A stretch of DNA of 64,000 nucleotides from an uncultured Clostridia bacterium (GCA_964545975.1 CAZJHY010000001.1:24094-88093); one strand, 5' to 3'; numbered from the stretch's first letter, positions 10,415-28,625 are shown. Made by a program: numbers and translations. Notes: generated from the sequence alone by a model not told the origin.

Positions 10415-10437
10415 ACGCAGCCCTCCCTGTATGCTGC

Positions 10438-10971: not shown

Positions 10972-11008
10972 GGGATAACCTCCTCGATGTTAACATGTTA
11001 GACGATTA

Positions 11009-11036
11009 AATTGTATCAAATACAAACGGCATGTCA
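11009..11036 (-). promoter_or_regulatory. Sigma-70-type promoter of the gpx-ohrR operon
   Basis: The minus strand reads TTGACA (11036-11031), a 16-nt spacer, then TACAAT (11014-11009). The gpx start codon at 10971 is about 38 nt downstream and has a GAGGAGG ribosome-binding site. Confidence 0.6.
11010..11024. promoter_or_regulatory. Candidate OhrR operator palindrome
   Basis: TTGTAT-CAA-ATACAA is a perfect 6-3-6 inverted repeat overlapping the spacer and -10 element. It is flanked by the near-identical 10-mers ATGTTAACAT (10986-10995) and ATGTCAACAT (11030-11039). Confidence 0.5.
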
Positions 11037-11065
11037 ACATCATCCAAGGGGCTCTCCTTGATTTT

Positions 11066-11713
11066 CTACTTGTTCTGCCCGTAAGTCCTGCCGAGGGTGG
11101 AGACCAATGCCTTCACCTGTTCGTCAGTTAGTGAGGATGCCCTGCCTATTTGCGAGGCGTGTATATAGCACGAGCACATCTTCTCCAGAAGCTCGCACCT
11201 TTCAAGGGCCTTCTCAGGCGTGTCAGCGACGCAGACTGACCCGTGATTGGACATTATTGCTGCATTCTTGCTTCCTAGCGCCTTCGCGACGTTCTTTGCT
11301 AGGTCGTCGCTTCCAGACATAGCATAATCCGCTACCTCTACAGCGCCTCCGAAGCTGAAAGCGCATATATCAGTTATGACCGGAAGAGGCATCCTTGCTA
11401 CGCCAAGGGCTATCGCCATGGGTGAATGAACATGAACGACGGCTTTAACCTCAGGCCTGGCAATGTAGATCTCCCTGTGCAGCATGCTTTCTACCGAGGG
11501 CTTAAGCTTTGATGAGGAATACAGTGTCGCCAGATCCAGCTCTACTATCTGCTCAGGGGAAAGCGCCTCATAAGGTATGCCGCTGGGGGTTATCAGCATC
11601 CCGGTTCCTGATTCATTCCTGCAGCTGACATTCCCTCCGGTGCCTATAGTAAGCCCCATTTCCATCATCTTGATGCCGGTCTGGATAATTCTTCTGTTAA
11701 GCTGCTCGTTCAT
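11066..11713 (-). CDS. Class II aldolase/adducin-domain protein (FucA/AraD-like)
   Basis: Motifs GTGGNVSCR and VVHVHSP. It is transcribed divergently from the sugar operon. Confidence 0.85.
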   Translation of the reverse strand: MNEQLNRRIIQTGIKMMEMGLTIGTGGNVSCRNESGTGMLITPSGIPYEALSPEQIVELDLATLYSSSKLKPSVESMLHREIYIARPEVKAVVHVHSPMAIALGVARMPLPVITDICAFSFGGAVEVADYAMSGSDDLAKNVAKALGSKNAAIMSNHGSVCVADTPEKALERCELLEKMCSCYIHASQIGRASSLTDEQVKALVSTLGRTYGQNK

Positions 11714-12002
11714 CTTTCTCCTCCATCTGTGGCTGTTGTATTGCCAGTACGAAATTATACAGTCAATTGCATATTAATATAGCACAATAACCTAACCAGG
11801 TGCGAAGGAGCACGCTGTTTTTAATGTGAGTCAAATACATTGCAAAAGCACAGCATAAAAGCGGTATTGCTTGCATCAGCAGGACACTGCTTCCTGAATA
11901 CTGGATTCAGCTTCCTGACGCTTGTCTAGGCAGTTTGATGTATATTTTCCTCCACATAAATGATATTCTATATTAAAGCGTTTCCGGATAGTTGTATATT
12001 AT

Positions 12003-12011
12003 TGGTACAAT
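12003..12011 (+). promoter_or_regulatory. Candidate extended -10 promoter element for the sugar/RLP operon
   Basis: TGGTACAAT matches the TGn-TAnAAT pattern. It lies about 140 nt upstream of the GTG start at 12152. I see no good -35 element. Confidence 0.3.
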
Positions 12012-12151
12012 CTCCATTAGTATACAATCCAGAAAGGGGTGTTCGGCAGGCAGCTAACCACGGTAGTACCAAAATTACTAGCGACCAATCGCAAGTGGGA
12101 CAAGAAATCAATCTCCAGCGAGAAGTATAAGCAATTAGGGGAGGGAATCTT

Positions 12152-13162
12152 GTGAAGAGAACATTGTTAATCGCGGTTGTACTAGTCATGGCACTAACCA
12201 TCGTAACCGGCACTTTCGCAGCGACTACGCCTCTGTTGGTATCGGGCGGCGGTCTTAAGACGACCACTACCGTCAAGGCCAACTCGAAGTATCTCATCGC
12301 TTGCATCGTTAAGAACTCCACCAATCCTTACATGATCAAGCAGCTTGACGGCTTCAAAGCCGCCGGCGCATTCATGGGCTTCGACGCCGTCGCACTGGCT
12401 CCCGCCAAGGCCGACAACATCGAAGAGCAGGTCAAGATAATCGAAGACCTCATCCAGAAGGGCGTCAAGGGCCTCGTCATCCATCCTTCCGACTCCAACG
12501 GCATAGTCCCGATAGTCGAGAAGGCCATGTCGCTCGGCATCCCCGTGGTCGTAATAGGTACCCCGGCGAATACCGACAAGATATTCTTCCGCACCGGCAT
12601 GGACTATACCGACTCTGGCCGCAAGATCACCGAAGCTGCCATCCAGAAGATGGGCGGCAAGGGCAACGTCATAATACTTGAGGGCCCGCCCCAGGCGATC
12701 AACGCCAAGGAAAGGCTCAACGGCATGCTCGAAACTATAGCCAAGTACCCCGGCGTAAAGGTGCTTGACTCCCAGACCGCAAACTTCAACAGGCTCAACG
12801 CCCTCCAGGTCATGGAGAACCTCCTTCAGAAGCACAAGGACGTGCAGGGAGTCTTCGCGGCCAACGACGAGATGGCCCTCGGCGCGATCCAGGCTCTTGA
12901 AGCCGCCGGCAGGAAGAACGTGGTAGTCTCCGGCGTCGACGGAAGCAAGGACGCCTCGCAGGCGGTCCTCGAAGGCAGGCTCACAGTGACCTCGAATGCA
13001 GACCCCTATTCCAGCTCCTGGTGCGCCGCAGCATACATCGTGAAGTACTTGAACGACGGCACCATGCCGCCCTCCAAGTTCATCCCGTATCCCGCTGAAG
13101 TCGCCATCATCGACAAGAGCAACGTTCAGAACTACATCAACAACGACGCGTGGTGGAAGTAG
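12152..13162 (+). CDS. Sugar ABC transporter substrate-binding protein (RbsB-like, Peripla_BP_4)
   Basis: Signal peptide, GTG start after GGGGAGGG, and RbsB-like core sequences (VKNSTNPYM, AANDEMALGA, VSGVDGS). Confidence 0.88.
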   Translation: MKRTLLIAVVLVMALTIVTGTFAATTPLLVSGGGLKTTTTVKANSKYLIACIVKNSTNPYMIKQLDGFKAAGAFMGFDAVALAPAKADNIEEQVKIIEDLIQKGVKGLVIHPSDSNGIVPIVEKAMSLGIPVVVIGTPANTDKIFFRTGMDYTDSGRKITEAAIQKMGGKGNVIILEGPPQAINAKERLNGMLETIAKYPGVKVLDSQTANFNRLNALQVMENLLQKHKDVQGVFAANDEMALGAIQALEAAGRKNVVVSGVDGSKDASQAVLEGRLTVTSNADPYSSSWCAAAYIVKYLNDGTMPPSKFIPYPAEVAIIDKSNVQNYINNDAWWK

Positions 13163-13180: not shown

Positions 13181-13210
13181 ATGGAGCCCTGTCGCAAGAC
13201 GGGGCTCCAT
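13181..13210 (+). promoter_or_regulatory. Intercistronic stem-loop after the substrate-binding protein gene
   Basis: ATGGAGCCC (13181-13189) pairs with GGGCTCCAT (13202-13210), a 9-bp stem. The ATG at 13181 is part of the stem, so it is unlikely to be the ATPase start. Confidence 0.55.
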
Positions 13211-13231
13211 GCACCCAAGGGGGCGTTATTT

Positions 13232-14752
13232 TTGGAGATAGTACCTATCCTCGAAGCGAGGAACATCAGCAAGGAGTTCCCGGGCGTAAAGGCGTTGGAT
13301 GAAGTATCCATACAGGTAAGGCCCGGCGAGGTCCATGTACTGATAGGAGAGAACGGGGCCGGAAAGAGCACGCTGTCCAAGATACTCATGGGAGTGTATA
13401 CCAGCGACAAGGGCGAGATCCTGTTCGATGGTAAGCCCGCCCACATTAGGAACCCTCATGACGCAAGGGCATTAGGCATATGCGGTGTCCATCAGGAGTT
13501 CATGCTTGTACCCTGGATGAACGTCGCACAGAACATCTTCATCAACAGAGAGCCCAGGATTTGGCCGGGGCTTCCCTTCATAGACCACAAGAAGATGCAC
13601 GAGGACAGCAGGAAGCTGCTTTCCTCCTTCAACGTGAACATCAACACCAAGCAGCCGGTGAAATACCTGGACACCGCGCTCCAGCAGATGGTGGAGATAG
13701 TAAAGGCGCTATCTACGAACCCCAAGGTCCTGATACTTGACGAACCGACTGCAGTCCTCACGGACAGGGAGGTCAACAGCCTCTTCGCCCATATAGAGGA
13801 GCTGAGAAGCCGAGGGGTTGCGATCATATACATATCGCACAGGCTTCCTGAGATCAGAAGGATAGGCGACAGGGTCACGGTCCTAAGAGACGGGAAGTAT
13901 GTAGCAACGGTTGACATCAAGGACACCCCCGACGAGGAGCTCATCAAGATGATGGTGGGCAGGAGCGTTTCGCAGCTTTATACCAGAAACCGCCAGGTTC
14001 CCGGGAAAGAGGCCCTGAGGCTTGAGAATTTCAGCGTGAAGGGCGGACCGCAGAATGTCGACCTGGTGCTGCACTACGGAGAGATCATTGGGCTTGCGGG
14101 CCTGATTGGTTCAGGGCGCACCGAGCTTGTCAGGGGCATCATGGGAATTGACCAGCAGACAGGCGGTTCCCTTTACATCGATGGCAACAAAGTCACGGTC
14201 GGAAGCCCTGACAAGGCGATAGGACTGGGGCTGGGGCTTCTGCCTGAGGACCGCAAGAGGTATGGCCTCGCCCTTAAGACGAACATCGCCTGGAATACCA
14301 TAATGGCGAGCCTCAAGCGGGAGTTCCCCAAGGGAGTAGTAAGGGAGCGCAAGGTGCGCGACATCGCCCAGGGCTATGTTAAGCAGCTGAAAATCGCCAC
14401 AGACTCGGTATCTAAGGTGGTGGGCTTCCTAAGCGGAGGCAACCAGCAGAAGGTTGTCGTCGCCAAGTGGATCAACACCAAGGCCAAGATCCTCATCTTC
14501 GACGAACCTACAAGGGGCATCGACGTGGGGGCCAAGGCAGAGGTGCACGCCCTCATGGACAAACTGGTGGCCGAAGGAAACGCGATCATAATGATTTCCT
14601 CCGACCTGCCGGAAGTCCTCGGGATGAGCGACCGCGTCTACACGATATTCCAGTGCCGTTCCATGGGGGACTGCTGCTTCCAGGAGGCGAACCAGCAGAG
14701 AATCGGCTCCCTTATGCTGGGAGTGGGGGTGAAGACAGATGCAAACCAGTAA
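13232..14752 (+). CDS. Sugar ABC transporter ATP-binding protein, duplicated ATPase (RbsA-like)
   Basis: Two nucleotide-binding domains are present (GENGAGKST; LSGGNQQKV; ILIFDEPTRGID). The preferred start is TTG 13232, 9 nt after AAGGGGG. The ORF itself opens at 13181. Confidence 0.88.
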   Translation: MEIVPILEARNISKEFPGVKALDEVSIQVRPGEVHVLIGENGAGKSTLSKILMGVYTSDKGEILFDGKPAHIRNPHDARALGICGVHQEFMLVPWMNVAQNIFINREPRIWPGLPFIDHKKMHEDSRKLLSSFNVNINTKQPVKYLDTALQQMVEIVKALSTNPKVLILDEPTAVLTDREVNSLFAHIEELRSRGVAIIYISHRLPEIRRIGDRVTVLRDGKYVATVDIKDTPDEELIKMMVGRSVSQLYTRNRQVPGKEALRLENFSVKGGPQNVDLVLHYGEIIGLAGLIGSGRTELVRGIMGIDQQTGGSLYIDGNKVTVGSPDKAIGLGLGLLPEDRKRYGLALKTNIAWNTIMASLKREFPKGVVRERKVRDIAQGYVKQLKIATDSVSKVVGFLSGGNQQKVVVAKWINTKAKILIFDEPTRGIDVGAKAEVHALMDKLVAEGNAIIMISSDLPEVLGMSDRVYTIFQCRSMGDCCFQEANQQRIGSLMLGVGVKTDANQ

Positions 14753-15704
14753 GCTCATGGGCTTTTTGAGGAAGGTCCCGCCGGCGACATACATCATACT
14801 GCTCATGATAGCCATATACGGCATCGCCGCGCCCGGCTTCTTCACCCTTGGAAACCTCGAGAACGTCGGAAACCAGGCGGCCCCCCTTCTCATCGTCGCC
14901 ATAGGTGTGACCATGGTCATCATGACGGAGGGTACAGACCTTTCGATCGGTTATGTGATGGGCATGGTCGGAGTCGTTGTATCGATTATGCTTAGGGCGA
15001 AAATCTGGATAGGCTGGGCGTTCCTTGCCGGCATCGCGGTAGGGGTGTTCTGCGGCTTCATAAACGGCGTCGCAGTCGCAAAGCTCAAGCTTCCTCCGTT
15101 CATTGCTACGCTTGGTACCGGAAACGTCATATTCGGAATAGGCCTCGTCATAACCGAAGGATACTCCATACAGGCACTTGATCCTGCGCTGCTTTTTCTG
15201 GCAAGCGGCAAGGTGTTCGGAATAAGCATGCCGATACTGATTGCCACGGTGGTCTTCGGGTTATGCTGGGTACTCATGAACTACACGCCGTTCGGGCGCA
15301 ACATAGTCTCTCTCGGAGGCAACTCCGAGGCGCTTAGAGGCGTTGGCCTTAACGTCGGGAAAGCCTCCATATCGGTATACATGATGTGTGGCTTCCTTGC
15401 GGCAATAGGAGGCCTCATAGTGGCGTCAAGGACAGGCTCAGGCTATTCGGCGGCTGCCATGGGATGGGAGTTCGACGCCATCGGAGCCAGTATAATCGGC
15501 GGTACATCCTTCGAGGAGGGCAATGGATCCATAAGCAGGACCGTAATTGGTGTCGCGCTCATATCGATACTCAGAAACGGCCTTAATGTCGTGGGCGTGC
15601 CGAACATGTACCAGTACGCGCTCATCGGCGCCATAGTGCTGACGGCCATAATCCTGGACGTTCGCTTCAGGCAGGCCGCGAAGGGAGGCGTCAAGAGAGT
15701 ATGA
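14739..15704 (+). CDS. Sugar ABC transporter permease (RbsC-like)
   Basis: Polytopic protein with the RbsC-type motif TGGIDLS/GTDLSIG. Confidence 0.9.
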   Translation: MQTSKLMGFLRKVPPATYIILLMIAIYGIAAPGFFTLGNLENVGNQAAPLLIVAIGVTMVIMTEGTDLSIGYVMGMVGVVVSIMLRAKIWIGWAFLAGIAVGVFCGFINGVAVAKLKLPPFIATLGTGNVIFGIGLVITEGYSIQALDPALLFLASGKVFGISMPILIATVVFGLCWVLMNYTPFGRNIVSLGGNSEALRGVGLNVGKASISVYMMCGFLAAIGGLIVASRTGSGYSAAAMGWEFDAIGASIIGGTSFEEGNGSISRTVIGVALISILRNGLNVVGVPNMYQYALIGAIVLTAIILDVRFRQAAKGGVKRV

Positions 15705-16696
15705 ACGAAGGTTCAAGGATGAAGGACACCCCCAAGGCGGTCGCAATCGTAAACGACAGGCTCAAGGCAAGGGAGGCCATAGCTCCCCTCTTCAGGCTCA
15801 CGTTCCTGATAGTCCTCATGATCGCACTTTCCATACTCAGCGAGGACTTCTTCACATGGAGCAACCTAATTAACGTTCTCAGGCAGTCGACTTTCCTGAT
15901 AGTAATCGGCCTCGGGCTCACAGGGGTGCTGCTTACCGGAGGCATCGACCTGTCCGTAGGCGGTGTGCTCGCATTCGTGGGCTGCGCGACTGGACAGATG
16001 ATGAGATCCGGCGTTCCGCTTTATCTTGCAGTGCCAATCGGTCTTCTAATCGGAGCGGGAGTCGGATGCTTCAACGGTTTCATGGTGGGGTACATCAAGC
16101 TTCCTCCGTTTGTGGCCACTTACGGTTCCAAGTGGATATCCGAGGGCATGGCGCTGCTTCTTATGCAGGGGCAGGTCATCTACGGCTTCCCGAGGGTGTA
16201 CCGCTGGATCGGCATCGGCTACATAGGACCCATACCAGTGCCCATCATAATTGCTGCCATCCTTGCGGTAATAATGAACTTCCTGTTCGTGAAGACCGTA
16301 TTCGGCAGGCAGGTATATGCACTGGGCGCCAACAAGGAAGCAGCATTCTACTCGGGCATCAAAGTCAAGAAGAACATCATGGTGGTATACACCCTTGCTG
16401 GCCTCATGGCGGGCATTGCCGGCCTTCTGATGCTTGCAAGGCTTGACGCCGCCGAGGTGAACATGGGAGAGGCCCTGCAGCTGCAGTCCCTCGCCGCGGT
16501 CATCATCGGGGGTGCATCCCTTCGCGGAGGCGAGGGCAGCATATTCGGCACGATAATTGGCGCCATAACCCTTACGCTGGTCGTAAACGGGCTTAACCTG
16601 CTTGGCGTGCGCTCTTTGTGGCACTCAGTGGTGCTCGGCGGCGTCATCCTGGCATCCGTGATAATGGACCTGCGCATGAAGAAGCTGGCGCAATAA
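15701..16696 (+). CDS. Sugar ABC transporter permease (RbsC-like, second copy)
   Basis: Polytopic protein with LTGGIDLSVGG. Its start forms an ATGA overlap with the upstream permease gene. Confidence 0.9.
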   Translation: MNEGSRMKDTPKAVAIVNDRLKAREAIAPLFRLTFLIVLMIALSILSEDFFTWSNLINVLRQSTFLIVIGLGLTGVLLTGGIDLSVGGVLAFVGCATGQMMRSGVPLYLAVPIGLLIGAGVGCFNGFMVGYIKLPPFVATYGSKWISEGMALLLMQGQVIYGFPRVYRWIGIGYIGPIPVPIIIAAILAVIMNFLFVKTVFGRQVYALGANKEAAFYSGIKVKKNIMVVYTLAGLMAGIAGLLMLARLDAAEVNMGEALQLQSLAAVIIGGASLRGGEGSIFGTIIGAITLTLVVNGLNLLGVRSLWHSVVLGGVILASVIMDLRMKKLAQ

Positions 16697-17619: not shown

Positions 17620-18843
17620 ATGAAGACTATCGCAGTGATAACCTCGCTGGACACGAAGGGGAAAGAGACCCTCTATATAAAGGATGCGATCGAGAGGTTC
17701 GGCTCGAAGGCTCTCATCATAGACGTAGGGGTCAAGGAGCCGCCATATTTCACGCCTGATATCGCAAGGCACGAGGTGGCCGCCGCCGCCGGCATCGACT
17801 GGGATACGGTGAAGGACAAGGAGAAAAGGGTGAGGATAAGCACCATGACCTCAGGCCTTGAGGTGCTTATACCCAAGCTATATGCCGAGGGGAAGCTTTC
17901 GGCCGTGTTCTCGATGGGAGGCCTTCAGAACACAACGATGGGAACATCGGCGATGAAGACCCTGCCGCTCGGGGTGCCTAAGCTCATGCTTTCCACGATG
18001 GCGTCCAGCAACAGGCCTTTCGGTCCGTTCGTGGGAACCAAGGACATGACCCTCATGCACTCGGTGGGCGACATCCTAGGGGTAAACCCCGTCACCAAGG
18101 CCGTGATGGATAACGCCGTCGGAGCCATCGTGGGGATGGCGGAGCACGCCGGAAACAGGGTGCAGAAAACTGACAGGATCCTTGTGGGTGCCACTATGCT
18201 CGGCGTAACGAACGACGGAGTGAGCCGCGCGGTATCCTACCTCGAGGAGGCAGGCTACGACGTGGTCACCTTCCATGCGAACGGTGCGGGAGGACCGGCC
18301 ATGGAGGAGCTCATAGGACAGGACACGATAGACGCCGCGATGGATCTTACGCTGCATGAGATAGACGCTGAATTCTTCGGGGGGCACTGTTCGGGGGCGA
18401 CCAACAGGCTCCTTATGGCCGCCGAGAAGGGGATACCCCAGGTTGTTTCGCTTGGTGCCTCCGACGTCATAGACTATGAGGTCGTGGACCTCGACAAGGT
18501 AAGGGAGTATGGAAGGCGCAAGTTCGTCTATCAGCACCCCACCATCCAGCACATAAAGCTCATAGAGGAAGAGGCGCACAAGGTCGGGACGGTAATCGGG
18601 GAGAGGCTCTCAAAGGCCAAGGGTCCCCTAACCCTCGTCATACCTAGGGGAGGCTTCCACCAGAGCAGCTACAAAGGCGGTCCCATATGGGATCCTGCCA
18701 TCGACGAGATAATCATAGGACACATACTAAGCAGGATTGCGCCTTCCACAAGGGTGGTAGAGACCGCAGCCCATATCAACGAGCCCGCCTTCAGCAGGGT
18801 GGCGGCCGATGAGATGATTAAGCTTCTGAAGGCCATGCGCTAA
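17620..18843 (+). CDS. UPF0261 / Tm-1-like ATP-binding domain protein
   Basis: The N-terminus MKTIAVITSLDTKGKE matches my memory of the UPF0261 family. The length is about 400 aa. This call rests on recollection, not a search. Confidence 0.7.
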   Translation: MKTIAVITSLDTKGKETLYIKDAIERFGSKALIIDVGVKEPPYFTPDIARHEVAAAAGIDWDTVKDKEKRVRISTMTSGLEVLIPKLYAEGKLSAVFSMGGLQNTTMGTSAMKTLPLGVPKLMLSTMASSNRPFGPFVGTKDMTLMHSVGDILGVNPVTKAVMDNAVGAIVGMAEHAGNRVQKTDRILVGATMLGVTNDGVSRAVSYLEEAGYDVVTFHANGAGGPAMEELIGQDTIDAAMDLTLHEIDAEFFGGHCSGATNRLLMAAEKGIPQVVSLGASDVIDYEVVDLDKVREYGRRKFVYQHPTIQHIKLIEEEAHKVGTVIGERLSKAKGPLTLVIPRGGFHQSSYKGGPIWDPAIDEIIIGHILSRIAPSTRVVETAAHINEPAFSRVAADEMIKLLKAMR

Positions 18844-18875
18844 GCAGGGCCAGAAGCCTCACAAGGAGGATTCCG

Positions 18876-20132
18876 ATGTTCTACGGACTGCCTTTCGACA
18901 ACCCCGAGTCCATTTATGGCAGGGATTACGTTCTGGGCACCTATTTCGTGACCGGCGTCACAGGAGACGATGCGCTTAATAAGCTGGGCATGTTTGCAGT
19001 CGGCCAGTCCACCGGCACGTGGATGCCGGTGCCCGGCATAACCAGGCAGATGGTGGAGGATCATCAGGGAAGAGTCGTCGGATGCTATCCGGTGCCCGCC
19101 CAGGAGCCCGGCGCCTACGTTCTTAGGGTGGCGTTTCCCTACAGCAACATAGGCGGGTCCATCTCGATGCTGCTTACCACGCTTGCGGGAAACGACGCTT
19201 CGACTGCGCTGTGCGCGAAGCTCATAGACGTGGAGCTTGTCGGCAAGGCGAAGTCGGCCTTCCACGGTCCGCACTTCGGAATAGACGGGGTGAGGAAGCT
19301 CACGGGAGTCTACGACAGGCCCATAGTCATGAATATGATCAAGCCTTGCACGGGCTTTCCGGCTACGGCAGGGGCGGAGTTCTTCTACGCGTCCGGATCA
19401 GGCGGCGTAGACATAATAAAAGATGACGAGCTTATGGGCAACACCAGCTTCAATTCCGTCGCCGACAGGGTGAGGGAGTATGGTAAGGCTCAAGCGAGAA
19501 TCGGAGGAGAGAGGGGCAAGGCCCCTATATACCTTCCCAATGTGACCGACAGGCACGATAAAATGCGCGACAACATCAAGGCGGCGATAGACGGCGGAGC
19601 GAAGGGCGTCATGGTCAACTTCGTCTTCACCGGACTCGACAGCCTTGCCGCGCTTACATCGGAGTTCGGCGACAAGGTGATGTTCCTCGCTCATGCGGCA
19701 GGAGTTGGCGTCATGACCGGTTATCCGCAGGGCTTAAGCACCTCGCTTCTTCTAGGAAGGCTCGGAAGGCTGGCAGGCGCGGACGCGGTGGTCACCCTTT
19801 ATCCTCTCGGCATGGGAGGAGACGGCTTCCAGGAGCTTCAGATGACGGTGCAGAAGCACAGGCTGCCTCTGGGAGATGTCAAGCAAGCCTTGACCGTGGT
19901 CGGAGGAGGCGTCACGCCGCTTACCGTACCGTTTGCGGTGAAGAGCTTCGGCAAGGACATAATCATCGCCGTTGGCGGTGGCATCCAGGGCCACCCGGAC
20001 GGGGCGACGGCAGGCGCAAAGGCCATGATGGCTGCGGTGGATGCGACCATGAAGGGCGTAAGCCTGGAAGACGCGGTTAAGGACAGCCCGGAGCTCGGAA
20101 GGGCGATAACCAGATGGGGCAAGAAGGCTTAA
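18876..20132 (+). CDS. RuBisCO-like protein (form IV RLP)
   Basis: Three blocks align without gaps, by eye, to RbcL: RPIVMNMIKPCTG...GGVDIIKDDE, TVVGGGV and AVGGGIQGHPDG. The protein is only 418 aa. No small subunit, phosphoribulokinase or cbb genes are nearby. Confidence 0.85.
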   Translation: MFYGLPFDNPESIYGRDYVLGTYFVTGVTGDDALNKLGMFAVGQSTGTWMPVPGITRQMVEDHQGRVVGCYPVPAQEPGAYVLRVAFPYSNIGGSISMLLTTLAGNDASTALCAKLIDVELVGKAKSAFHGPHFGIDGVRKLTGVYDRPIVMNMIKPCTGFPATAGAEFFYASGSGGVDIIKDDELMGNTSFNSVADRVREYGKAQARIGGERGKAPIYLPNVTDRHDKMRDNIKAAIDGGAKGVMVNFVFTGLDSLAALTSEFGDKVMFLAHAAGVGVMTGYPQGLSTSLLLGRLGRLAGADAVVTLYPLGMGGDGFQELQMTVQKHRLPLGDVKQALTVVGGGVTPLTVPFAVKSFGKDIIIAVGGGIQGHPDGATAGAKAMMAAVDATMKGVSLEDAVKDSPELGRAITRWGKKA

Positions 20133-20154: not shown

Positions 20155-20793
20155 ATGGAGGTAAAGCAGATGGAAGATCTTATCATGAGCATAAAAAGGG
20201 ACGTGGAGCTCGCCTGCAGGAGGGCGTACACGAGGGGAATACAGACCGGAAGCGGCGGAAACGTCAGCGCAAGGATACCGGGCACGGACCATATGATAGT
20301 GAAGCCAAGCAAGGTGTCGCTCATCGAATGCGACCCCGAGACGCTTATCATAACCGACTTCGACGGAAACTTGGTGCAGGGCTCTCTTCCTCCTACGAGG
20401 GAGGCGGTGCTTCACGGCTGGCTGTATAAGAAGTTCGGCAAGATCGGAGCGGTGGTTCACACCCATTCGCCCTGGGCTATATCCTGGTCCTTCACCAGGA
20501 GGGACCTTCCCAATATTACCATGCATACTCAGCTTAAGCTGGGATGCCCCATCCCGGTCAGGTTCTTCTCCAGCCCCAAGGGGGTTCTGAAGGAGGAGAT
20601 GCCAGAAGTCTACGGCCTTTTCGAGAAGGAACCGAACCTCGCCGCCTTCATACTCGGTGCGCACGGTGTGGTCGCAGTCGGCGACAATATCATAGAGGCC
20701 GAGCACACGGCGGAGCTCATAGAGGAGACGGCACAGATAGCATACCTGCACGAGATGGGATTGAAGCTCGGGATGTTCCCCGAGGGCAGATAA
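20155..20793 (+). CDS. Class II aldolase/adducin-domain protein
   Basis: Motifs GSGGNVSAR and VVHTHSP. Confidence 0.85.
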   Translation: MEVKQMEDLIMSIKRDVELACRRAYTRGIQTGSGGNVSARIPGTDHMIVKPSKVSLIECDPETLIITDFDGNLVQGSLPPTREAVLHGWLYKKFGKIGAVVHTHSPWAISWSFTRRDLPNITMHTQLKLGCPIPVRFFSSPKGVLKEEMPEVYGLFEKEPNLAAFILGAHGVVAVGDNIIEAEHTAELIEETAQIAYLHEMGLKLGMFPEGR

Positions 20794-20822: not shown

Positions 20823-21284
20823 ATGTACAGGAAGATGGTAATAGGCTGCGACGAGGCGGCCTGTGAGCTGAAAAACGCCCTTATCGAGGTCCTTAAGAAG
20901 AAGGGAATTGAGTATGAGGACGTCGGAGTGCCGGATGCAAGCGACAAGACCTATTATCCCCTGGTGGCAGAGAAGGTGGCCGAGGCGATAATAGAAAGCG
21001 GCTATGAGAAGCACGGGATGCTCCTCTGCGGAACGGGCATCGGCATGGCCATATCCGCGAACAAGCACCCCGGGGTATTTGCCGCTGTATGCCACGACCA
21101 GTATTCTACCGAGAGGGCGAAGCTGAGCAACAACTGCAACGTCATCTGCATGGGGGCAAGGGTCATAGGGCCAGAGCTTGCCAAGAAGAACCTGGAGCAA
21201 TGGCTTGAGCTGACGTTCAAGGACGGCTCCTCGACCCCTAAGGTGGAGGCTGTGAAGGATATCGAGAAGAGGCATATGAAATGA
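20823..21284 (+). CDS. RpiB/LacA/LacB-family sugar-phosphate isomerase
   Basis: MVIGCDEAA, and LLCGTGIGMAISANK containing the catalytic Cys. The start is ATG 20823. The longer ORF from 20544 overlaps the aldolase gene and is rejected. Confidence 0.88.
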   Translation: MYRKMVIGCDEAACELKNALIEVLKKKGIEYEDVGVPDASDKTYYPLVAEKVAEAIIESGYEKHGMLLCGTGIGMAISANKHPGVFAAVCHDQYSTERAKLSNNCNVICMGARVIGPELAKKNLEQWLELTFKDGSSTPKVEAVKDIEKRHMK

Positions 21285-22075
21285 GGAGCCCGCTTCTTGT
21301 CGGCACGAACCTCAAGATGTACAAGGGCGTGAAGGAGACGCTGGAGTTCCTTTCGCGCCTTGCGGGAAACGTCAGCCACATAGGCAGCGAAGACATGACG
21401 CTCTTCGTCATACCCTCCTACCTTGCCCTTCATGCGGCATGCGGGTCTGATGCGCACAGCAGGATACTCCTTGGCGCGCAGAATCTGCACTGGGAGGACT
21501 CCGGGCAGTTCACCGGTGAGATATCCCCCATGATGCTCAAGGAGATAGGCATAGATATCGCTGAGATCGGCCACTCGGAACGAAGGCAGCTTTTCGGTGA
21601 GACGGACGTGACAGTGGGGCTTAAGGCCAAGGCAGCGCTCAGGCACGGCATGAGGGCCCTGGTATGCATAGGGGAGACCGCAGACGACAAGGCGTCGGGC
21701 ATTACCTATGAGAAGCTGAGGATGCAGGTGAAGGTGGCCTTAAAGGGGATTTCTGCGGATGAGCTCGAGGGGCTTTGGGTAGCATACGAGCCGGTATGGG
21801 CCATCGGGATCCACGGGGTCCCGGCTGAGCCCGGATACGCCGAGAAGAGCCACAGGATGATAAAAGACGTGCTGGAAGAGCTTTACCCTAATAAGGGCGC
21901 AGGCGTTCCCGTGCTGTACGGCGGAAGCGTCAACATGGAAAACGCCATGGAGCTCATCGTCCAGCCGAGCATAGACGGCTTGTTCATAGGAAGGACCGCT
22001 TGGGACGCGGACAGGTTCGCGTCGCTGATCAAGGATGTCCTCCCCTTGTGGAAGGCCAAGGCTGAGAGAGAATAG
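21281..22075 (+). CDS. Triosephosphate-isomerase-family protein (TpiA/EryH/LerI-like)
   Basis: Motifs NLKMY, GHSERR, AYEPVWAIG and YGGSVN. Its start forms an ATGA overlap with the RpiB-like gene. Confidence 0.88.
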   Translation: MRSPLLVGTNLKMYKGVKETLEFLSRLAGNVSHIGSEDMTLFVIPSYLALHAACGSDAHSRILLGAQNLHWEDSGQFTGEISPMMLKEIGIDIAEIGHSERRQLFGETDVTVGLKAKAALRHGMRALVCIGETADDKASGITYEKLRMQVKVALKGISADELEGLWVAYEPVWAIGIHGVPAEPGYAEKSHRMIKDVLEELYPNKGAGVPVLYGGSVNMENAMELIVQPSIDGLFIGRTAWDADRFASLIKDVLPLWKAKAERE

Positions 22076-22104: not shown

Positions 22105-22776
22105 ATGGCGGACATGGTCATGGAGGCGAAAAGGCAGTTAATAGAGATCGGAAGGCAGATAGCTGCCAAGGGACTTGTGATAGGACCCGGCGGAAATACC
22201 AGCTTAAGGGCAGGCGCCCTCATGGTGATATCCGCCAGCGGCTCTTCATTCGAGTGCTCCGACGAGAGCGACTACGTCGCGATAGACATAGAGACAGGAA
22301 AACAGGCCGACGGCGGCAAGAGGCCGTCTTCCGAAGTGCTGATGCACCTTGAGTGCTACAGGAGGCGCCCGGATGTAAACGCTGTAGTCCATACCCATCC
22401 GACGTGGTCGACATCTGTAGCAAGCTCGGGCACCAAGATGCCCCCGATGTTCCCGGATTACGTCGTGTTCGTGGGCAAGCCCGCGACCCTGGATTACGTG
22501 ATACCGACGACGAAGCTTCTGGCCGATGCCGTGGCCGAAGTCATAGGGGAGCATAATGTGGTGCTCATGAGCAATCACGGGGTGCTTGCCGTCGCAGGCG
22601 ACCTCAAGATGGCGCTATTAAGGGTGGAGCTGGCAGAGGAGAACGCAAGGATGCTCGTGATAGCAAACTCCCTCGGCAAGCCGCGATCCCTTACGGATGC
22701 CGAAGTCCAGGCGATATTTGACCTGGAGAGCGAGAAGTACAGGCAGAGGCTTCTGAAAAACGAGGGCGGGAAGTAG
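22105..22776 (+). CDS. Class II aldolase/adducin-domain protein
   Basis: Motifs GPGGNTSLR and VVHTHP. Confidence 0.85.
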   Translation: MADMVMEAKRQLIEIGRQIAAKGLVIGPGGNTSLRAGALMVISASGSSFECSDESDYVAIDIETGKQADGGKRPSSEVLMHLECYRRRPDVNAVVHTHPTWSTSVASSGTKMPPMFPDYVVFVGKPATLDYVIPTTKLLADAVAEVIGEHNVVLMSNHGVLAVAGDLKMALLRVELAEENARMLVIANSLGKPRSLTDAEVQAIFDLESEKYRQRLLKNEGGK

Positions 22777-22798: not shown

Positions 22799-24271
22799 TT
22801 GTCCGACAGGCTTTTCATGGGGATAGACGTGGGCACGGGCGGAGCCAGGGTCATAGTCTGCGACGAGTACGGGTTGCCCCTGGCGGAAAGCTCGAGGCCG
22901 TTTGCCGCAGGTGCCGGCGCATCTGACATGCCCCAGGGCTGGCATCAGCAGTCGCCCGCAGCCTGGTGGGACGCGACTTCCGCATGTATAAGGCAGGTCA
23001 TGGGCTCACCCGGACTCGGCGGAAATCCTGGCAGGGTGTTCTCTGTTTCCGTCACATCCACATCAGGTACTGTGATCCCGCTTAGGGAGGATTGCGAACC
23101 GCTCTGGGATGCGGTCATGTACAACGACAGCAGGTCGTCCGCGCAGGCGGAAAGGGCGAACGAGGCGCTTAAGGAATTATGCGGGAAGCTCGCCTACAGG
23201 TTCGACACATCCTTCGGGCTTCCGAAGATGCTATGGTTCATGGACAGCAAGCCTGAGCTGTTCAGAAGGACCAGATTCTTCGTCCACGCTGGCGATTATA
23301 TTATCGGGAAGCTCTGCGGCTGCTTCGGTTTCACCGACTATTCCAACTCGCTGAAGTCTGGATACGACATCGATGAGCTGATATGGCCGAAGGAGATAGA
23401 GGAGAAACTGGGCGTCCCGGCGTCCAAACTGCCGGAAGTGCTCGCCCCGGGCACGGTAGTCGGGAAGGTCTGCGCCGCCTGCTCCGCAGAGACGGGCCTT
23501 CCGGAAAGCACCAACGTCGCGCTGGGCATGACGGACGGCTGCGCCTCGCAGATTGCATCGGGTGCCGCGTCCTTAGGCGACTGGAACACCACGATCGGCA
23601 CAACGCTTGTAATCAAGGGGGTCACCGAGAGGCTCCTCTTCGACCCGAAGGGAAGGATATACAGCCACAGGCATCCCGACGGGCACTGGATGCCAGGCGG
23701 GGCCAGCAACGTCGGCGGCGACTGCATAAGAAGCAACTTCCGCGACGATGAGCTGGATACGCTGAACGCGTCCGTGCGCCCTGAGAAGCCGACAGGCATG
23801 CTGGTGTACCCTCTGGAGAAGAAGGGCGAGAGGTTCCCGAACAGAGATCCTTTGGCAGAGGGGTTCATAATGGGAAGCCCATCAGGAAGGCCCGAGCTCT
23901 ATCAGGCCTACCTTGAGGGTGTTGCGCTGGTGGAGAAGATGTCATACGAGATGCTTCAGAGCTTGGGGGCGGCAATCGGTGACACGATCTTTGCGGCGGG
24001 AGGCGCCACGAAAAGCGAGCCATGGCTCAAGGTAAGGTCGAATATGCTCGACCGGCGCATTGCAGTCCCGGAGATTGCAGGAGGATTCATGGGAGCCGCC
24101 ATACTAGCAGCTTCCCTCTCCCATTGGGGCTCGCTCGGTGAGGCTGCCAAAAACATGGTAAAAATTTCCAAGACGATATGCCCGGACCCTGCCGCTGTCG
24201 ATGCCTATAAGGATAAGTACGGGCAGTTCATAAGAGAGATGGGAAGCAGGGGATATACCCTGGAGGGATGA
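22799..24271 (+). CDS. FGGY-family carbohydrate kinase
   Basis: N-terminal MGIDVGTGGARV and C-terminal FAAGGATKS, typical of xylulokinase/ribulokinase-type kinases. TTG start after AAGGAGG. Confidence 0.85.
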   Translation: MSDRLFMGIDVGTGGARVIVCDEYGLPLAESSRPFAAGAGASDMPQGWHQQSPAAWWDATSACIRQVMGSPGLGGNPGRVFSVSVTSTSGTVIPLREDCEPLWDAVMYNDSRSSAQAERANEALKELCGKLAYRFDTSFGLPKMLWFMDSKPELFRRTRFFVHAGDYIIGKLCGCFGFTDYSNSLKSGYDIDELIWPKEIEEKLGVPASKLPEVLAPGTVVGKVCAACSAETGLPESTNVALGMTDGCASQIASGAASLGDWNTTIGTTLVIKGVTERLLFDPKGRIYSHRHPDGHWMPGGASNVGGDCIRSNFRDDELDTLNASVRPEKPTGMLVYPLEKKGERFPNRDPLAEGFIMGSPSGRPELYQAYLEGVALVEKMSYEMLQSLGAAIGDTIFAAGGATKSEPWLKVRSNMLDRRIAVPEIAGGFMGAAILAASLSHWGSLGEAAKNMVKISKTICPDPAAVDAYKDKYGQFIREMGSRGYTLEG

Positions 24272-24275
24272 TGAT

Positions 24276-25673
24276 ATGAGCATTTACAAGGCCTGCGACA
24301 TAAGGGGAGTCTACCCTTCGTCGCTCGACGAGAAGACGTCATACGATATAGGAGCGGCTTTGGGGGAGATGCTCGGCCCTGTAAGCATGCTCGTCGCAGG
24401 CGACGTGAGGGTCAGCACGCCGCCTTTGAAGCAAAGCCTTATAAACGGCCTTGTGGACGCCGGATGCGAAGTAGTGGACATCGGCATGGCCCCGACCCCG
24501 GCCTTCTACTACGCGCTTCATAAGCTGGGCACCGAGTCGGGCGTGACGGTGACGGCATCCCATAATCCGGCCAAGTACAACGGCTTCAAGATAGCGCCGC
24601 ACGGGCAGCCCATGACTGAAGACGTGATGGACGACCTGAGGAAGATGGTCGAAGCTGGAGGATTCAAGCCATATGGGCAAGGGAGCGTAAGGAAGGCTGA
24701 GGTCATCGAGGATTACAAGAGATTCGTGCTTGATAAGATAGGAGAGCTAACGGGAACGAAGTGCAGCGCTCATGGTTCGAGTAATGCCCTCAAAGCCGTG
24801 GTGGACTGCGGCAACGGCTGCTACAGCACGATAGCCCCTGAAGTTCTAAGGCAAGCTGGCATCGCGGTTGAGGAGCTCTATTGCTGGGAGGATGGAACTT
24901 TCCCTAACAGGGAGCCAAACCCAGCTGTAGCTGAGAATCTCGAGGCTTTATGCGGCAAGGTCAGAGATACGGGGGCAGACCTTGGCATTGCCTTCGACGG
25001 GGACGGTGACAGGGTGGTCTTCGTGGACGAGCTGGGCAAAGTGGTCCCTAGCGACAATGCGATAGCACTTTTCGCCGGCTTCCTCCTTAAGAATCACCCC
25101 GGCTCGAAGGTGGTTTTCGACATCAAGTGCTCAAGCCTTGTGTCGGATTCGATCAAGGCGGCGGGCGGCATTCCAGTGATGGAGAAGTCAGGCCACGCTT
25201 ACATCAAGAACAACCTGCTGAGAAACGGCGCGGTTTTCGCAGGCGAGATCAGCGGGCACTTCTTCTTCCAGGTGCTCAAGGGGGATGACGGGCTGTTCGC
25301 GGCTCTTCTGATGGCCGAGATCATGATGTCGGAGGGCAGAAGCCTGGGGAAGATGGTGGAGTCGCAGCCGAAGTACTTCACTACAAGAGACTTCAGGATA
25401 CCGTTCTCGGGGAGCACGGCCGAGCTGTTCGGAAGGCTCAAAGCGCGCCTTGAGGCAAGCGGAGGCGCAAACCTGTCGTACCTGGACGGCATAAGGGCGG
25501 AGTTTTCTGAAGGCTGGGGGCTTATAAGGGCATCAGTCACTGAGCCACTGGTTACGCTGAGGTTCGAGGGGAAGTCGTTGGAGAGCCTTGATAGGATAAG
25601 GGATAGCTTCCTTGCTGCAGATGAGGACTTGCTTGATGCCGTAAGGGAGGTTTGGGCAAACCATCTTCCTTAG
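24276..25673 (+). CDS. Phosphomannomutase/phosphoglucomutase-family phosphosugar mutase
   Basis: Active-site loop TASHNPAKYNGFK, metal loop FDGDGDR and GEISGH. Confidence 0.9.
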   Translation: MSIYKACDIRGVYPSSLDEKTSYDIGAALGEMLGPVSMLVAGDVRVSTPPLKQSLINGLVDAGCEVVDIGMAPTPAFYYALHKLGTESGVTVTASHNPAKYNGFKIAPHGQPMTEDVMDDLRKMVEAGGFKPYGQGSVRKAEVIEDYKRFVLDKIGELTGTKCSAHGSSNALKAVVDCGNGCYSTIAPEVLRQAGIAVEELYCWEDGTFPNREPNPAVAENLEALCGKVRDTGADLGIAFDGDGDRVVFVDELGKVVPSDNAIALFAGFLLKNHPGSKVVFDIKCSSLVSDSIKAAGGIPVMEKSGHAYIKNNLLRNGAVFAGEISGHFFFQVLKGDDGLFAALLMAEIMMSEGRSLGKMVESQPKYFTTRDFRIPFSGSTAELFGRLKARLEASGGANLSYLDGIRAEFSEGWGLIRASVTEPLVTLRFEGKSLESLDRIRDSFLAADEDLLDAVREVWANHLP

Positions 25674-25685: not shown

Positions 25686-26372
25686 CTACTTCTCGGTGAA
25701 CTCCCTCATATAGCACTCGTATTTGCTGCAGTTCACCTGTATTCTCCTGTTTACGCTCCGGATGAATCCTTCGTTGGCAAGCTCGTTCATTAGCTTGCTT
25801 ACGGTCACCCTTGCAGCTCCTACGATGACTCCCAGCTCATAGTGCGTGTATCTCACCTTGAGCTCATACCAGCCGGGGTCGGCCTCGGCTTCCCTGTCGA
25901 CAGAGGAGCAGAGAAGCCTTGCTATCCTGTCCTTGCATGAGTTGAAGGTCAGGTTTTCAATCTCGAACCTGGTAATCAGGAGCTTCGTCGCCAGGCAACG
26001 GATGAATGCGTCCCTGAAGACAGCGCTGCTGTCCAGAAGCTGCCTCACCTTGTCCGGCGGTATCTTGCAAAGGACGACATCGGTCTCGGCTTGGGAGTAA
26101 AGTCCGGTCTTCCTTCCCAGGTAGAAGCCCATCTCACCGAAGAGCCAGCCCGGAGTGAGAGCATAGAGGACCTTTTCAAGCCCGTCCTCGTTCGCCATGA
26201 AATGCTTGGTCCTGCCCGACTTGATGTACAAGACGCCGCCGAAATCGCTCCCGGGCACAGAGAAGAGCGTCTTGGCAGGATAGGTAACCCTAATCGAGTT
26301 CTGCTCGATTATCTTCTCCAGTGCCTCGTTGTATGCATCGGGCATTAAGAGCCCCGTCTCCTCAAGGCGCAA
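25686..26372 (-). CDS. Crp/Fnr-family transcriptional regulator
   Basis: It has a cNMP-binding-like beta-barrel (GWLFGEMGF) and a C-terminal helix-turn-helix (THYELGVIVGAARVTVSKLMNEL). Confidence 0.85.
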   Translation of the reverse strand: MRLEETGLLMPDAYNEALEKIIEQNSIRVTYPAKTLFSVPGSDFGGVLYIKSGRTKHFMANEDGLEKVLYALTPGWLFGEMGFYLGRKTGLYSQAETDVVLCKIPPDKVRQLLDSSAVFRDAFIRCLATKLLITRFEIENLTFNSCKDRIARLLCSSVDREAEADPGWYELKVRYTHYELGVIVGAARVTVSKLMNELANEGFIRSVNRRIQVNCSKYECYMREFTEK

Positions 26373-27513: not shown

Positions 27514-27602
27514 GCTCGAAAGACCTGATCGAATAGAATTGGCAAGTTGCTTCGAAGCATAGTGGGAAGCAGATAAAAAGAAACGAAGGAGGAAGACCTG
27601 TC

Positions 27603-28617: not shown

Positions 28618-28625
28618 CAAGACTT

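Follow-up and report, generated by a model that had tools for sequence, protein, structure and literature searches.

The stretch of DNA analysed here, referred to as the window, comprises 64,000 nucleotides from an uncultured Clostridia bacterium (GCA_964545975.1, CAZJHY010000001.1:24094-88093). It harbours a gene for a RuBisCO-like protein (RLP) belonging to a clade that is named here N123/C177 after the residues at these two positions in spinach RbcL numbering. The RLP gene is the seventh of a 13-gene co-directional operon, in which the gaps between genes are at most 82 nt and some genes overlap by up to 14 nt. The operon starts with a solute-binding protein, an ABC ATPase and two permeases, continues with a metallo-beta-lactamase-fold (MBL) hydrolase and a UPF0261 protein, and proceeds after the RLP with a class II aldolase-family protein, an RpiB homologue, a triose-phosphate isomerase (TIM) homologue, a second aldolase-family protein, an FGGY kinase and a phosphomannomutase/phosphoglucomutase (PMM/PGM) mutase. 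The main interest of the locus lies in the conserved module of UPF0261, RLP, LerI-type and DerI-type genes, and in the specific hypothesis for a new RLP function which this module allows. The features of the operon and its borders, with positions counted from the first letter of the window, are the following.

11066..11713, minus strand: third class II aldolase/adducin-family gene, divergent from the operon (Pfam Aldolase_II 6.3e-48; same layout, as two fragments, in the related locus L001)
12152..13162, plus strand: operon gene 1, ribose-binding-protein-type solute-binding protein of an ABC importer (Pfam Peripla_BP_4 4.6e-59; PDB match 2IOY and D-ribose-binding proteins)
13181..16696, plus strand: ABC ATPase (13181-14752) and permeases (14739-15704 and 15701-16696), called as open reading frames (ORFs) with ABC_tran/BPD_transp_2 homologues at the same positions in L001 and L002
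16728..17537, plus strand: MBL-fold hydrolase, lactonase-like (Pfam Lactamase_B 3e-24)
17620..18843, plus strand: UPF0261 (Tm-1-like, MarK-family) protein, proposed kinase (Pfam N- and C-terminal domains 4e-54 and 2e-61)
18864..18869, plus strand: Shine-Dalgarno sequence AGGAGG of the RLP gene, read from the sequence, 6 nt before the ATG
18876..20132, plus strand: RLP of the N123/C177 clade, 418 amino acids (ORF, Pfam, alignments, AlphaFold2 model)
20155..20793, plus strand: class II aldolase-family protein AldA, FucA/AraD/OtnC-like (Pfam Aldolase_II 9.4e-37)
20823..21284, plus strand: RpiB-family isomerase (Pfam LacAB_rpiB 6.2e-47)
21281..22075, plus strand: TIM-family isomerase of predicted LerI type (best PDB match 11EF)
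22105..22776, plus strand: second class II aldolase-family protein AldB (Pfam Aldolase_II 1.7e-42)
22799..25673, plus strand: FGGY carbohydrate kinase (22799-24271) and PMM/PGM-family mutase (24276-25673), identified by Pfam; lineage-specific additions
25686..26372, minus strand: Crp/Fnr-family regulator, convergent with the operon end (NCBIfam CRP-family matches, all under their cut-offs)

Both Pfam domains of the RuBisCO large subunit and its fold were found in the RLP, which is hence a member of that superfamily. The large domain PF00016 matched at 2.5e-39 (135.8 bits, cut-off 30.1), and the N-terminal domain PF02788 scored barely above its cut-off (21.2 against 20.7 bits). The AlphaFold2 model (pLDDT 90.7) displayed the full large-subunit fold, with TM values of 0.85-0.90 to form III, MtnW and C. 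tepidum structures. Several carboxylase residues are gone while the K201/D203/E204 metal site is retained, as in a form IV RLP. In the PDB search the best solved relatives were the MtnW of Alicyclobacillus (4NAS, 2e-60), then those of Geobacillus (2OEK) and B. subtilis (2ZVI), with form III RuBisCO and the C. tepidum RLP close behind. Identity to any solved structure is at most 33%, and no solved structure belongs to the same clade. The nearest public proteins are 97% (P0001) and 96% (L004, from an uncultured Clostridia metagenome-assembled genome, MAG) identical, and an exact-sequence look-up returned no identical record.

Active-site residues and the N123/C177 clade

The residues of the RLP were mapped onto spinach RbcL, represented by a sequence 100% identical over positions 1-475 to PDB 1IR1/8RUC, by two routes. 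The first was a pairwise phmmer alignment (E 3e-26) and the second a MAFFT alignment of the query with 117 full-length homologues and three MtnW structures; both gave one residue mapping. In the phmmer alignment RPIVMNMIKPCTG was placed opposite RPLLGCTIKPKLG and GGVDIIKDDE opposite GGLDFTKDDE, both without gaps. Further along, AHAAG was found opposite IHRAM, VVGGGV opposite VASGGI and AVGGGIQGHPDG opposite QFGGGTLGHPWG.

The original prediction, made from the sequence by eye, had K175, K201, D203, E204, H294 and the glycine pairs G380/G381 and G403/G404 as conserved, and by both routes these are query K156, K182, D184, E185, H273, G344/G345 and G367/G368. It had also given K177 as replaced by Cys, R295 by Ala, H327 by Val and S379 by Gly, which the two alignments place at C158, A274, V306 and G343. 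The loss of K334 in loop 6 stands as well, although the Met proposed in its place is only nominal since this loop aligns poorly. No Lys or Arg is present in query residues 301-323, and therefore no register shift can restore K334. A shift leaving K177, H327 and K334 conserved, or moving the KDDE motif off K201, D203 and E204, occurred in neither alignment. The original residue observation is correct and beyond chance. Additionally, T65/W66 and N123 are kept (query T48/W49 and N106), and H298 and E60 are replaced (V277 and G43). The codons concerned are listed below, with counts referring to the 117 homologues.

19017..19022, plus strand: T48-W49 (T65, W66), the share of the N-terminal domain in the P1 phosphate site; invariant 117/117
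19191..19193, plus strand: N106 (N123), the position of the catalytic Lys98 of MtnW; Asn in 116/117, Lys in 4NAS, 2OEK and 2ZVI
19341..19349, plus strand: K156-P157-C158 (K175, P176, K177 replaced by Cys), in the clade motif NMIKPC; K175 and C177 invariant
19419..19430, plus strand: K182-D183-D184-E185 (K201 carbamate site; D203 and E204 metal ligands); invariant 117/117
19692..19697, plus strand: H273-A274 (H294 kept, R295 replaced by Ala), from phmmer and MAFFT
19902..19910, plus strand: G343-G344-G345 (S379 replaced by Gly; G380 and G381 kept), from phmmer and MAFFT
19974..19979, plus strand: G367-G368 (G403, G404), P1 phosphate-binding glycines, from phmmer and MAFFT

Throughout the clade no change is seen in the metal/carbamate triad, K175, H294 or any part of the P1 phosphate site, and N123 is kept in 116/117 sequences. 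The distal (P2) phosphate site, formed by R295, H298 and H327, and the CO2/carboxylate pair K334/E60 are lost. The residue set of a bona fide RuBisCO of forms I-III is not found in the query, which has K177C, R295A, H298V, H327V, S379G and E60G and no Lys or Arg in loop 6. On its own, this pattern is ordinary for an RLP. The chemistry predicted from it originally, a Mg-dependent enolisation of a phosphorylated substrate and not CO2 fixation, appears well supported by the invariant metal site, K175, H294 and P1 site, by the loss of P2 and of K334/E60, and by the phosphorylating function (UPF0261, PTS or FGGY) encoded at the related loci. The A274 of the query (19695-19697) is atypical for position 295, which is Tyr in 101/117 and Phe in 10/117 sequences and is Ala in the query and one other sequence.

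Cys177 had been suggested as an unusual residue and a useful clade marker. It is indeed invariant (117/117), but it is also present in 4NAS and in other RLP groups whose residue 123 is K, D or E. Judged from the alignments, N123 together with C177 (motif NMIKPC plus GN-D) makes a better marker than C177 alone. N123, an Asn as in true RuBisCO and absent from the original list, is the residue that separates the query from MtnW most clearly. The original prediction likewise left out the gene neighbourhood, from which the class of the substrate is suggested. The signature of the clade comprises G60, T65, W66, N123, M173, K175, C177, K201, D203, E204, H294, Y/F295, G379, G381, G403 and G404 together with a loop 6 devoid of Lys; Met173 and Cys177 are invariant or almost so.

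A word-indexed protein search gave 971 matches at E <= 1e-10, and the best 120 of these 971 were 43-97% identical to the query and mainly metagenomic. The exhaustive search of representatives yielded 1704 clusters at E <= 0.001 and 164 at E <= 1e-30, the latter including neighbouring RLP/RuBisCO groups. By scanning contigs from one genome per species for the motifs GG[AG][IV]QGHPxG and [VIL][LM]NMIKPC, 311 loci were confirmed and 80 retained. The retained loci belong to Bacillota, Acidobacteriota, Chloroflexota, Actinomycetota and Spirochaetota, so that the clade spans at least five phyla, gut and rumen Bacillota included. Carriers among the Bacillota are Christensenellaceae, Oscillospiraceae, Erysipelotrichaceae, Clostridium magnum, Lactonifactor longoviformis and Petroclostridium.

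The phylogenetic placement that the original prediction had suggested as a check was made by neighbour-joining with 195 sequences, and the query is located inside a 50-member clade with a bootstrap of 100. The wider N123/C177 group (86-88 sequences) has a bootstrap of 41-65 and MtnW as its nearest labelled group, in a tree with deep nodes at bootstrap 10-40 and few named form IV references. Many clade members (P0009, P0011, P0015 and others) carry the JGI/IMG label '2,3-diketo-5-methylthiopentyl-1-phosphate enolase'. By their sequences, these methionine-salvage labels look like a systematic mis-annotation, the catalytic Lys of the enolase being missing.

Elsewhere in the superfamily, fusions were noticed among distant matches (the set P0216, P0264, P0262 and P0242). 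They combine an IF-2B (MtnA/e2b2-like) domain N-terminal to RuBisCO/RLP (742 and 726 amino acids), an RLP followed by an APH-type kinase domain (1265 amino acids), or a TIR domain with an RLP (583 amino acids). Neither a description of the N123/C177 clade nor one of the UPF0261-RLP pairing was found in the literature searched, which was thin in subscription journals.

Gene neighbourhoods and partner proteins

Neighbourhoods were compared in 83 loci, with ORFs scored against the proteins of the window and clustered de novo. The gene order of the window recurs in relatives with RLPs 80% and 61% identical to the query (L001 and L002), the range for order-conserving relatives being 61-82%. Among the 83 loci, UPF0261 was present in 58, the RpiB homologue and the TIM homologue in 54 each, a class II aldolase-family gene in 53, the MBL hydrolase in 44, an ABC transporter in about 43, a GntR/FCD regulator in 37-40, an FGGY kinase in 13 and a PMM mutase in 4. 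The UPF0261 gene is found directly upstream of the RLP gene in 41 of its 58 loci. Complete loci, with at least 6 kb on either side, numbered 51. The 38 with UPF0261 contained the MBL hydrolase (n = 32), an aldolase-family gene (n = 33), RpiB or TIM (n = 32), an ABC system (n = 29) and GntR/FCD (n = 25). RpiB or TIM was found in 12 of the 13 without UPF0261, which also displayed an ascorbate/galactitol-type phosphotransferase system (PTS) EIIC (n = 5), FGGY (n = 4) and a Zn-dependent dehydrogenase (n = 4). PTS EIIC was detected in 9 loci altogether, none of which contained UPF0261, and FGGY kinases were present in most loci having neither UPF0261 nor PTS. The DUF1537 kinase was absent from all 83 loci. 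AldB was confined to the closest relatives and some loci without UPF0261.

The active-site signature is the same in 53 UPF0261-linked and 28 non-linked clade members. This argues for one common reaction, with the RLP located in the 'back end' of the pathway together with the TIM and RpiB homologues.

The mutual exclusion of UPF0261 and PTS, and the lack of any other kinase at most loci, speak for a kinase function of the UPF0261 protein, which would supply the RLP substrate, and from the carbohydrate context we infer a sugar or an acid sugar as its own substrate. Its best PDB match was 9MPY, a UPF0261-domain protein (1.3e-43), with query K13 opposite K16. The only known catalytic activity in the UPF0261 family is that of MarK from Novosphingobium aromaticivorans, an ATP-dependent, ADP-forming kinase with phenolic aromatics as substrates, whose activating Lys is residue 16 and is equated with the nucleotide-contacting Lys20 of Tm-1 (PMC12624787). 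Because the MarK paper puts the activating Lys at 16, 9MPY is here taken as MarK E16K. The window protein is from the same family as MarK, has both domains and carries a Lys at the position of the activating Lys, but its gene lies in a carbohydrate context whereas MarK acts on phenolic aromatics. The acetovanillone kinases HpeHI/AcvAB were dropped as a precedent for UPF0261, as the MarK paper shows that they are not UPF0261 proteins (PMC12624787).

The TIM homologue of the window scored 202.5 bits against 11EF, an 'L-erythrulose-1-phosphate isomerase', compared with 179 bits or less against any triose-phosphate isomerase in the PDB. For 54 of the 55 TIM homologues beside clade RLPs, E. coli TpiA was a poorer match by score than either LerI or the TIM of the R. 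etli apiose cluster. Loop 6 in the window protein has the LerI-type motif EPVWAIGIHGVPA. The corresponding loops are EPVWDIGENGIPA in LerI (11EF), EPVWAIGVNGIPA in the R. etli apiose-cluster TIM and EPVWAIGTGKSA in TpiA, the canonical form of the last being EPVWAIGTGK(S/T)A. The motif EPVWAIG(V)NG(I/V)PA was present in 44 of 55 clade-linked TIM homologues and could serve in annotation to tell LerI-type isomerases from housekeeping TIM. By score and motif, the window protein is classed as LerI-type. It is 49% identical to its counterpart in the R. etli p42f apiose cluster, and the RpiB homologue 44%. The RpiB homologue scored 154 bits with the NCBIfam D-erythrulose-4-phosphate isomerase model (cut-off 240) and 162 bits with the RpiB subfamily model, and the PDB search returned no DerI structure as a match for it.

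The nearest relatives of the MBL protein in NCBIfam and the PDB are 4-pyridoxolactonase and AiiA-type lactonases, all far under the cut-offs. AldA is nearest in the PDB to 6BTD (fuculose-phosphate aldolase), 6VOP and AraD; it reached no NCBIfam equivalog cut-off and, as read from the sequence, retains the catalytic Glu as well as the HxH...H zinc motif. In or beside this one operon there are three paralogues of the class II aldolase/adducin family (11066-11713, 20155-20793 and 22105-22776). None of them reached an NCBIfam equivalog cut-off, and each may be an aldolase, an epimerase, a dehydratase or a decarboxylase. The resemblance of the solute-binding protein to ribose-binding proteins is generic only. 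For the front end of the pathway, which comprises the imported compound and the steps of the MBL hydrolase and the class II aldolase-family enzyme, ascorbate-type enediol lactones, D-erythroascorbate, apionolactone, free erythrulose, and dihydroxyacetone phosphate (DHAP) with formaldehyde were weighed, and none was singled out.

Several loci depart from the common layout. In the cultured clostridia Clostridium magnum DSM 2767 (L067, 9971-19162) and Petroclostridium sp. X23 (L055), the RLP gene was found with DeoR, Amidohydro_2, a PF09370 'PEP hydrolase-like' protein, UPF0261 and a DUF1097 membrane protein, as well as a Lactamase_B_2-type MBL protein, a LerI-like TIM, RpiB, transketolase and PFK. 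UPF0261 is there adjacent to PF09370, the domain that is its fusion partner in plant Tm-1-like proteins. A Chloroflexota locus (L056, 500-9500) contained three URO-D-family genes, a corrinoid-binding protein, two UPF0261 genes and an MBL gene. Five loci from Erysipelotrichaceae MAGs (L052, L057, L060, L073 and L075) combined the RLP with an ascorbate/galactitol-type PTS (EIIA, EIIB and EIIC), RpiB, an aldolase-family protein, a Cof-type HAD phosphatase and a conserved 210-amino-acid protein without a Pfam match; neither UPF0261 nor an MBL gene was present. Loci from actinomycetes and Peptoniphilaceae (FGGY, a GlpD-like protein, RLP, TIM and RpiB) were considered as Brucella-like ery operons; this was not confirmed, and the likeness is suggestive only.

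Outside the operon, the window contains at 329-9868 and 26599-30506 a LacI regulator, an aminotransferase, an M24-like peptidase, a LIV-type amino-acid ABC system, two DHDPS-family genes and a TAXI/DctM-type TRAP transporter. These flanking regions appear to be catabolic units of their own, with no relation to the RLP operon.

The proposed reaction and its alternatives

From its active site and its gene partners, the RLP is probably an enolising, non-carboxylating enzyme that acts on a keto sugar with one phosphate group, within a pathway yielding erythrose 4-phosphate. The narrower assignment as a D-/L-erythrulose-1-phosphate 3-epimerase is tentative and somewhat less likely than not, but more likely than any of the alternatives discussed below.

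The reaction may be depicted as follows. Lys182 would be carbamylated and bind Mg2+ together with Asp184 and Glu185, and the single phosphate of the substrate would occupy the P1 site, made up of T48/W49 of the partner subunit, G345, G367 and G368. The metal would polarise the 2-keto group next to the phosphate-bearing carbon, and the C3 proton would be abstracted to give the 2,3-enediolate, as in the first partial reaction of RuBisCO. Because the residues for C4, C5, the second phosphate and CO2 are lost, the substrate would amount to the front half of ribulose bisphosphate, with erythrulose 1-phosphate as the most likely compound. This compound corresponds to carbons 1-4 of ribulose 1,5-bisphosphate, and the clade keeps all residues touching the C1 phosphate, C2 and C3. 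Reprotonation on the opposite face would turn D- into L-erythrulose 1-phosphate, the step that is carried out by EryC elsewhere, and the invariant Cys177 might, speculatively, be the second proton donor on that face. RuBisCO itself misprotonates the enediolate at C3 to give xylulose bisphosphate, which is the same 3-epimerisation. The L-isomer would then be converted to D-erythrose 4-phosphate by the adjoining LerI-type TIM and RpiB homologues. The phosphorylated substrate would be supplied by the upstream UPF0261 (MarK-family) kinase, or by the PTS or an FGGY kinase in relatives. Its ultimate source would be a sugar or lactone that is taken up and then acted on by the MBL hydrolase and the class II aldolase-family enzyme.

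In the known route, EryC (3-epimerase) converts D- to L-erythrulose 1-phosphate, from which LerI forms D-erythrulose 4-phosphate and DerI D-erythrose 4-phosphate; FucA- and RhaD-type class II aldolases interconvert D-erythrulose 1-phosphate and DHAP with formaldehyde (PMC10733421). The conserved core found here consists of a FucA-like aldolase, the RLP, a LerI-type and an RpiB-type (DerI-like) isomerase, with the RLP in the place of EryC. In line with this, an EryC-type (PF01261) protein was found in none of the 83 loci, in a jackhmmer search from a single verified PF01261 probe with limited sensitivity. EryC of Brucella and rhizobia (D-erythrulose-1-phosphate 3-epimerase/tetrulose-4-phosphate racemase) acts before LerI/EryH and DerI/EryI (PMC10733421) and would be the functional equivalent of the RLP, as both would transfer a proton at the carbon that adjoins the keto function of a 1-phospho-2-ketose. 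The two are non-homologous, since EryC has a xylose-isomerase-like TIM-barrel fold (PF01261) and the RLP that of RuBisCO, and their equivalence is hypothetical. The comprehensive form of the proposal is held more tentatively still than the epimerase assignment taken alone. It states that the N123/C177 RLPs are ketose-1-phosphate 3-epimerases for D-/L-erythrulose 1-phosphate which replace EryC non-homologously with Cys177 as second donor, that UPF0261 is the first sugar kinase of its family, and that together they form an undescribed route to erythrose 4-phosphate.

Several points weigh against the epimerase assignment. The function proposed for clade members is drawn from sequence and gene context. 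The sensitivity of the EryC search, made with one probe, is limited. Loci of the UPF0261 type nearly always include the lactonase-like MBL protein and often GntR/FCD (25/38 complete loci). Regulators of the GntR/FCD type usually sense carboxylates. The MBL hydrolase and this regulator are what one would expect of an acid-sugar route, and hence of a decarboxylase. The apiose cluster of R. etli has the same layout of RLP, kinase, LerI and DerI, and its RLP is annotated as a decarboxylase. The epimerase model also leaves the roles of the MBL hydrolase and of the class II aldolase-family protein unexplained. In some UPF0261-type loci (L012 and L020, around 6700-12300) an aldehyde:ferredoxin oxidoreductase and a URO-D-family (MtaA-like) gene stand in place of LerI/DerI; these loci, together with the Chloroflexota locus L056, hint at a connection with aldehyde or C1 metabolism which is explained by none of the models. 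The GlpD-like, FGGY and Dak genes of loci without UPF0261 may, furthermore, be ordinary glycerol genes. The nearest plasmid relatives of the GlpD-like protein adjoin glpK, and L048 has a bona fide GlpK.

The main alternative is an OiaC-like decarboxylase, which we consider unlikely though still a serious competitor. A lactone or acid sugar would be imported, the MBL protein would open the lactone, UPF0261 would phosphorylate the 3-keto acid as OiaK does, and the RLP would decarboxylate it via a Mg-bound enediolate to L-erythrulose 1-phosphate, which LerI and DerI would convert to erythrose 4-phosphate. The R. etli p42f cluster follows the same logic, and contains NanR, an RLP annotated OiaX, a DUF1537 kinase, TIM, RpiB, an ApnO-like protein, a ribose-type ABC system and a Gfo/Idh/MocA oxidoreductase. 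For the OiaC/OiaX RLPs of D-apiose catabolism (R. etli p42f; R. leguminosarum pR132501) the likeness to the window extends to an RLP beside a kinase, LerI-type TIM, RpiB, a ribose-type ABC importer and a GntR-family regulator, and to a pathway reaching erythrose 4-phosphate via L-erythrulose 1-phosphate. The linkage to LerI- and DerI-type isomerases is accordingly shared, and concerns pathway logic and not homology-level membership. The identities of the window TIM and RpiB to their R. etli counterparts, the lactonase-like MBL protein and the GntR/FCD regulators in 37-40 of 83 loci also favour a decarboxylase. A precedent exists in the decarboxylation of 3-oxo-isoapionate 4-phosphate by an RLP (Carter et al. 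2018, as cited in PMC6302742).

The RLP itself fits this decarboxylase poorly. It is about 30% identical to the OiaC/OiaX proteins (29.5% to the R. etli RLP) and scores 128 bits with the OiaX model NF042437, against a cut-off of 700. R295 and K334, absent from the clade, are kept in R. leguminosarum OiaX and in a Bradyrhizobium DUF1537-linked RLP. In these two proteins position 123 is Gly or Asn and position 177 is Ala or Ser; the one annotated R. leguminosarum OiaX sequence has Gly123, Ala177 and Phe66. The reference clusters encode OiaK of the DUF1537 (four-carbon acid sugar kinase) family where UPF0261 is found here. They also include oxidoreductases (Gfo/Idh/MocA, ApnO-like), whereas Pfam and NCBIfam annotation revealed none in the window operon that could make a keto acid. 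The same active site is found in PTS-, FGGY- and dehydrogenase-type loci, which lack MBL and any sign of an acid intermediate, and the OtnC-like class II aldolase-family member of the operon could be the decarboxylase instead. Between the two rhizobial reference loci, the LerI- and DerI-type isomerases of the OiaC branch were seen in R. etli p42f (L088, 6352-10235) only, and not in R. leguminosarum WSM1325 (L084, 7938-10537). The OiaX annotation appears to merge two published activities.

Another kind of proton transfer, of the MtnW or R. rubrum type, is more doubtful than decarboxylation. The RLP would then tautomerise a 2,3-diketo-1-phosphate after an MtnB-like dehydratase and before a hydrolase, or catalyse a 1,3- or 1,2-keto shift on a pentulose or deoxy-ketose 1-phosphate, with the aldolase giving DHAP and an aldehyde. 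The closest characterised relatives are indeed the MtnW/YkrW proteins of Alicyclobacillus (4NAS), Geobacillus kaustophilus (2OEK) and Bacillus subtilis (2ZVI), with E-values of 2e-60 to 8e-55, 30-33% identity and the same fold. They share with the query the Mg/carbamate triad, K175, H294 and the P1 glycines, and have likewise lost K334, R295, H327 and E60; 4NAS even has Cys177. A class II aldolase-family gene adjoins the RLP gene in most loci, and some loci without UPF0261 combine RLP, an aldolase-family protein and a HAD phosphatase, reminiscent of MtnB, MtnW and MtnX. The aldehyde:ferredoxin oxidoreductase that replaces LerI/DerI in some UPF0261-type loci would fit an aldolase that releases an aldehyde. 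However, the general base of MtnW is reportedly Lys98 at position 123, as Imker et al. are said to have described in 2007. This numbering was checked against the MtnW structure alignment, and the residue is Asn in 116/117 of the homologues. The most constant partners are the LerI-type and RpiB-type isomerases, pointing to a tetrulose phosphate. None of the methionine-salvage partners mtnK, mtnA, mtnB, mtnX and mtnD was identified in the operon, the aldolase-family genes scoring under the MtnB cut-off. The RLP of Rhodospirillum rubrum (5-methylthioribulose-1-phosphate 1,3-isomerase; 3QFW) also enolises a ketose 1-phosphate with a single phosphate, reprotonates it elsewhere and does not carboxylate. 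It is farther from the query than MtnW (E 9.4e-33), and its substrate and context belong to S-adenosylmethionine/methylthioadenosine metabolism.

That the RLP is the methionine-salvage enolase MtnW proper, as automatic annotation has it for many homologues, is very improbable. The MtnW models are its top NCBIfam matches, yet they remain below their cut-offs (NF007095 265.8 against 409; TIGR03332 220 against 513.6), and the enolase names given by JGI to many clade members point the same way as these models. The query has Asn123 for Lys98 of MtnW, Gly379 for Ser and the Met173 of the clade, and its context is sugar transport and tetrulose-phosphate isomerases, with UPF0261, LerI-like and RpiB-like partners in place of methionine salvage. 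Residue 123, the scores below the model cut-offs and the gene context led to the rejection of MtnW. A true, form III-like carboxylase is the least probable of all and was rejected on seven replaced residues (K177, R295, H298, H327, K334, S379 and E60), despite form III being among the best fold matches and N123, T65 and W66 being of RuBisCO type, and no phosphoribulokinase or AMP-pathway gene was found in the operon or the annotated flanking genes. Tested against the features that define MtnW and OiaC/OiaX, the RLP qualifies as neither.

Significance for RLPs and the UPF0261 family

To our knowledge, reactions have been assigned to only four RLPs (the MtnW enolase, the R. rubrum isomerase, OiaC and OiaX), and most form IV clades are without an assigned function. 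The clade described here has a distinct active-site signature and a new kinase partner, and probably catalyses a new reaction. The UPF0261 family occurs in bacteria, archaea and plants (Tm-1). If the proposal is true, a carbohydrate substrate would be its second activity, after the phosphorylation of aromatics reported in 2025, and the route to erythrose 4-phosphate would occur widely among anaerobic Bacillota and extend to Acidobacteriota, Chloroflexota, Actinomycetota and Spirochaetota. Alternative enzymes for erythrulose-phosphate isomerisation are wanted for synthetic formaldehyde-assimilation cycles (PMC10733421). The RLP reaction would, if the proposal holds, equal the enolisation and epimerisation side-reaction of RuBisCO, and would thereby inform how carboxylation originated from a simpler proton-transfer enzyme.

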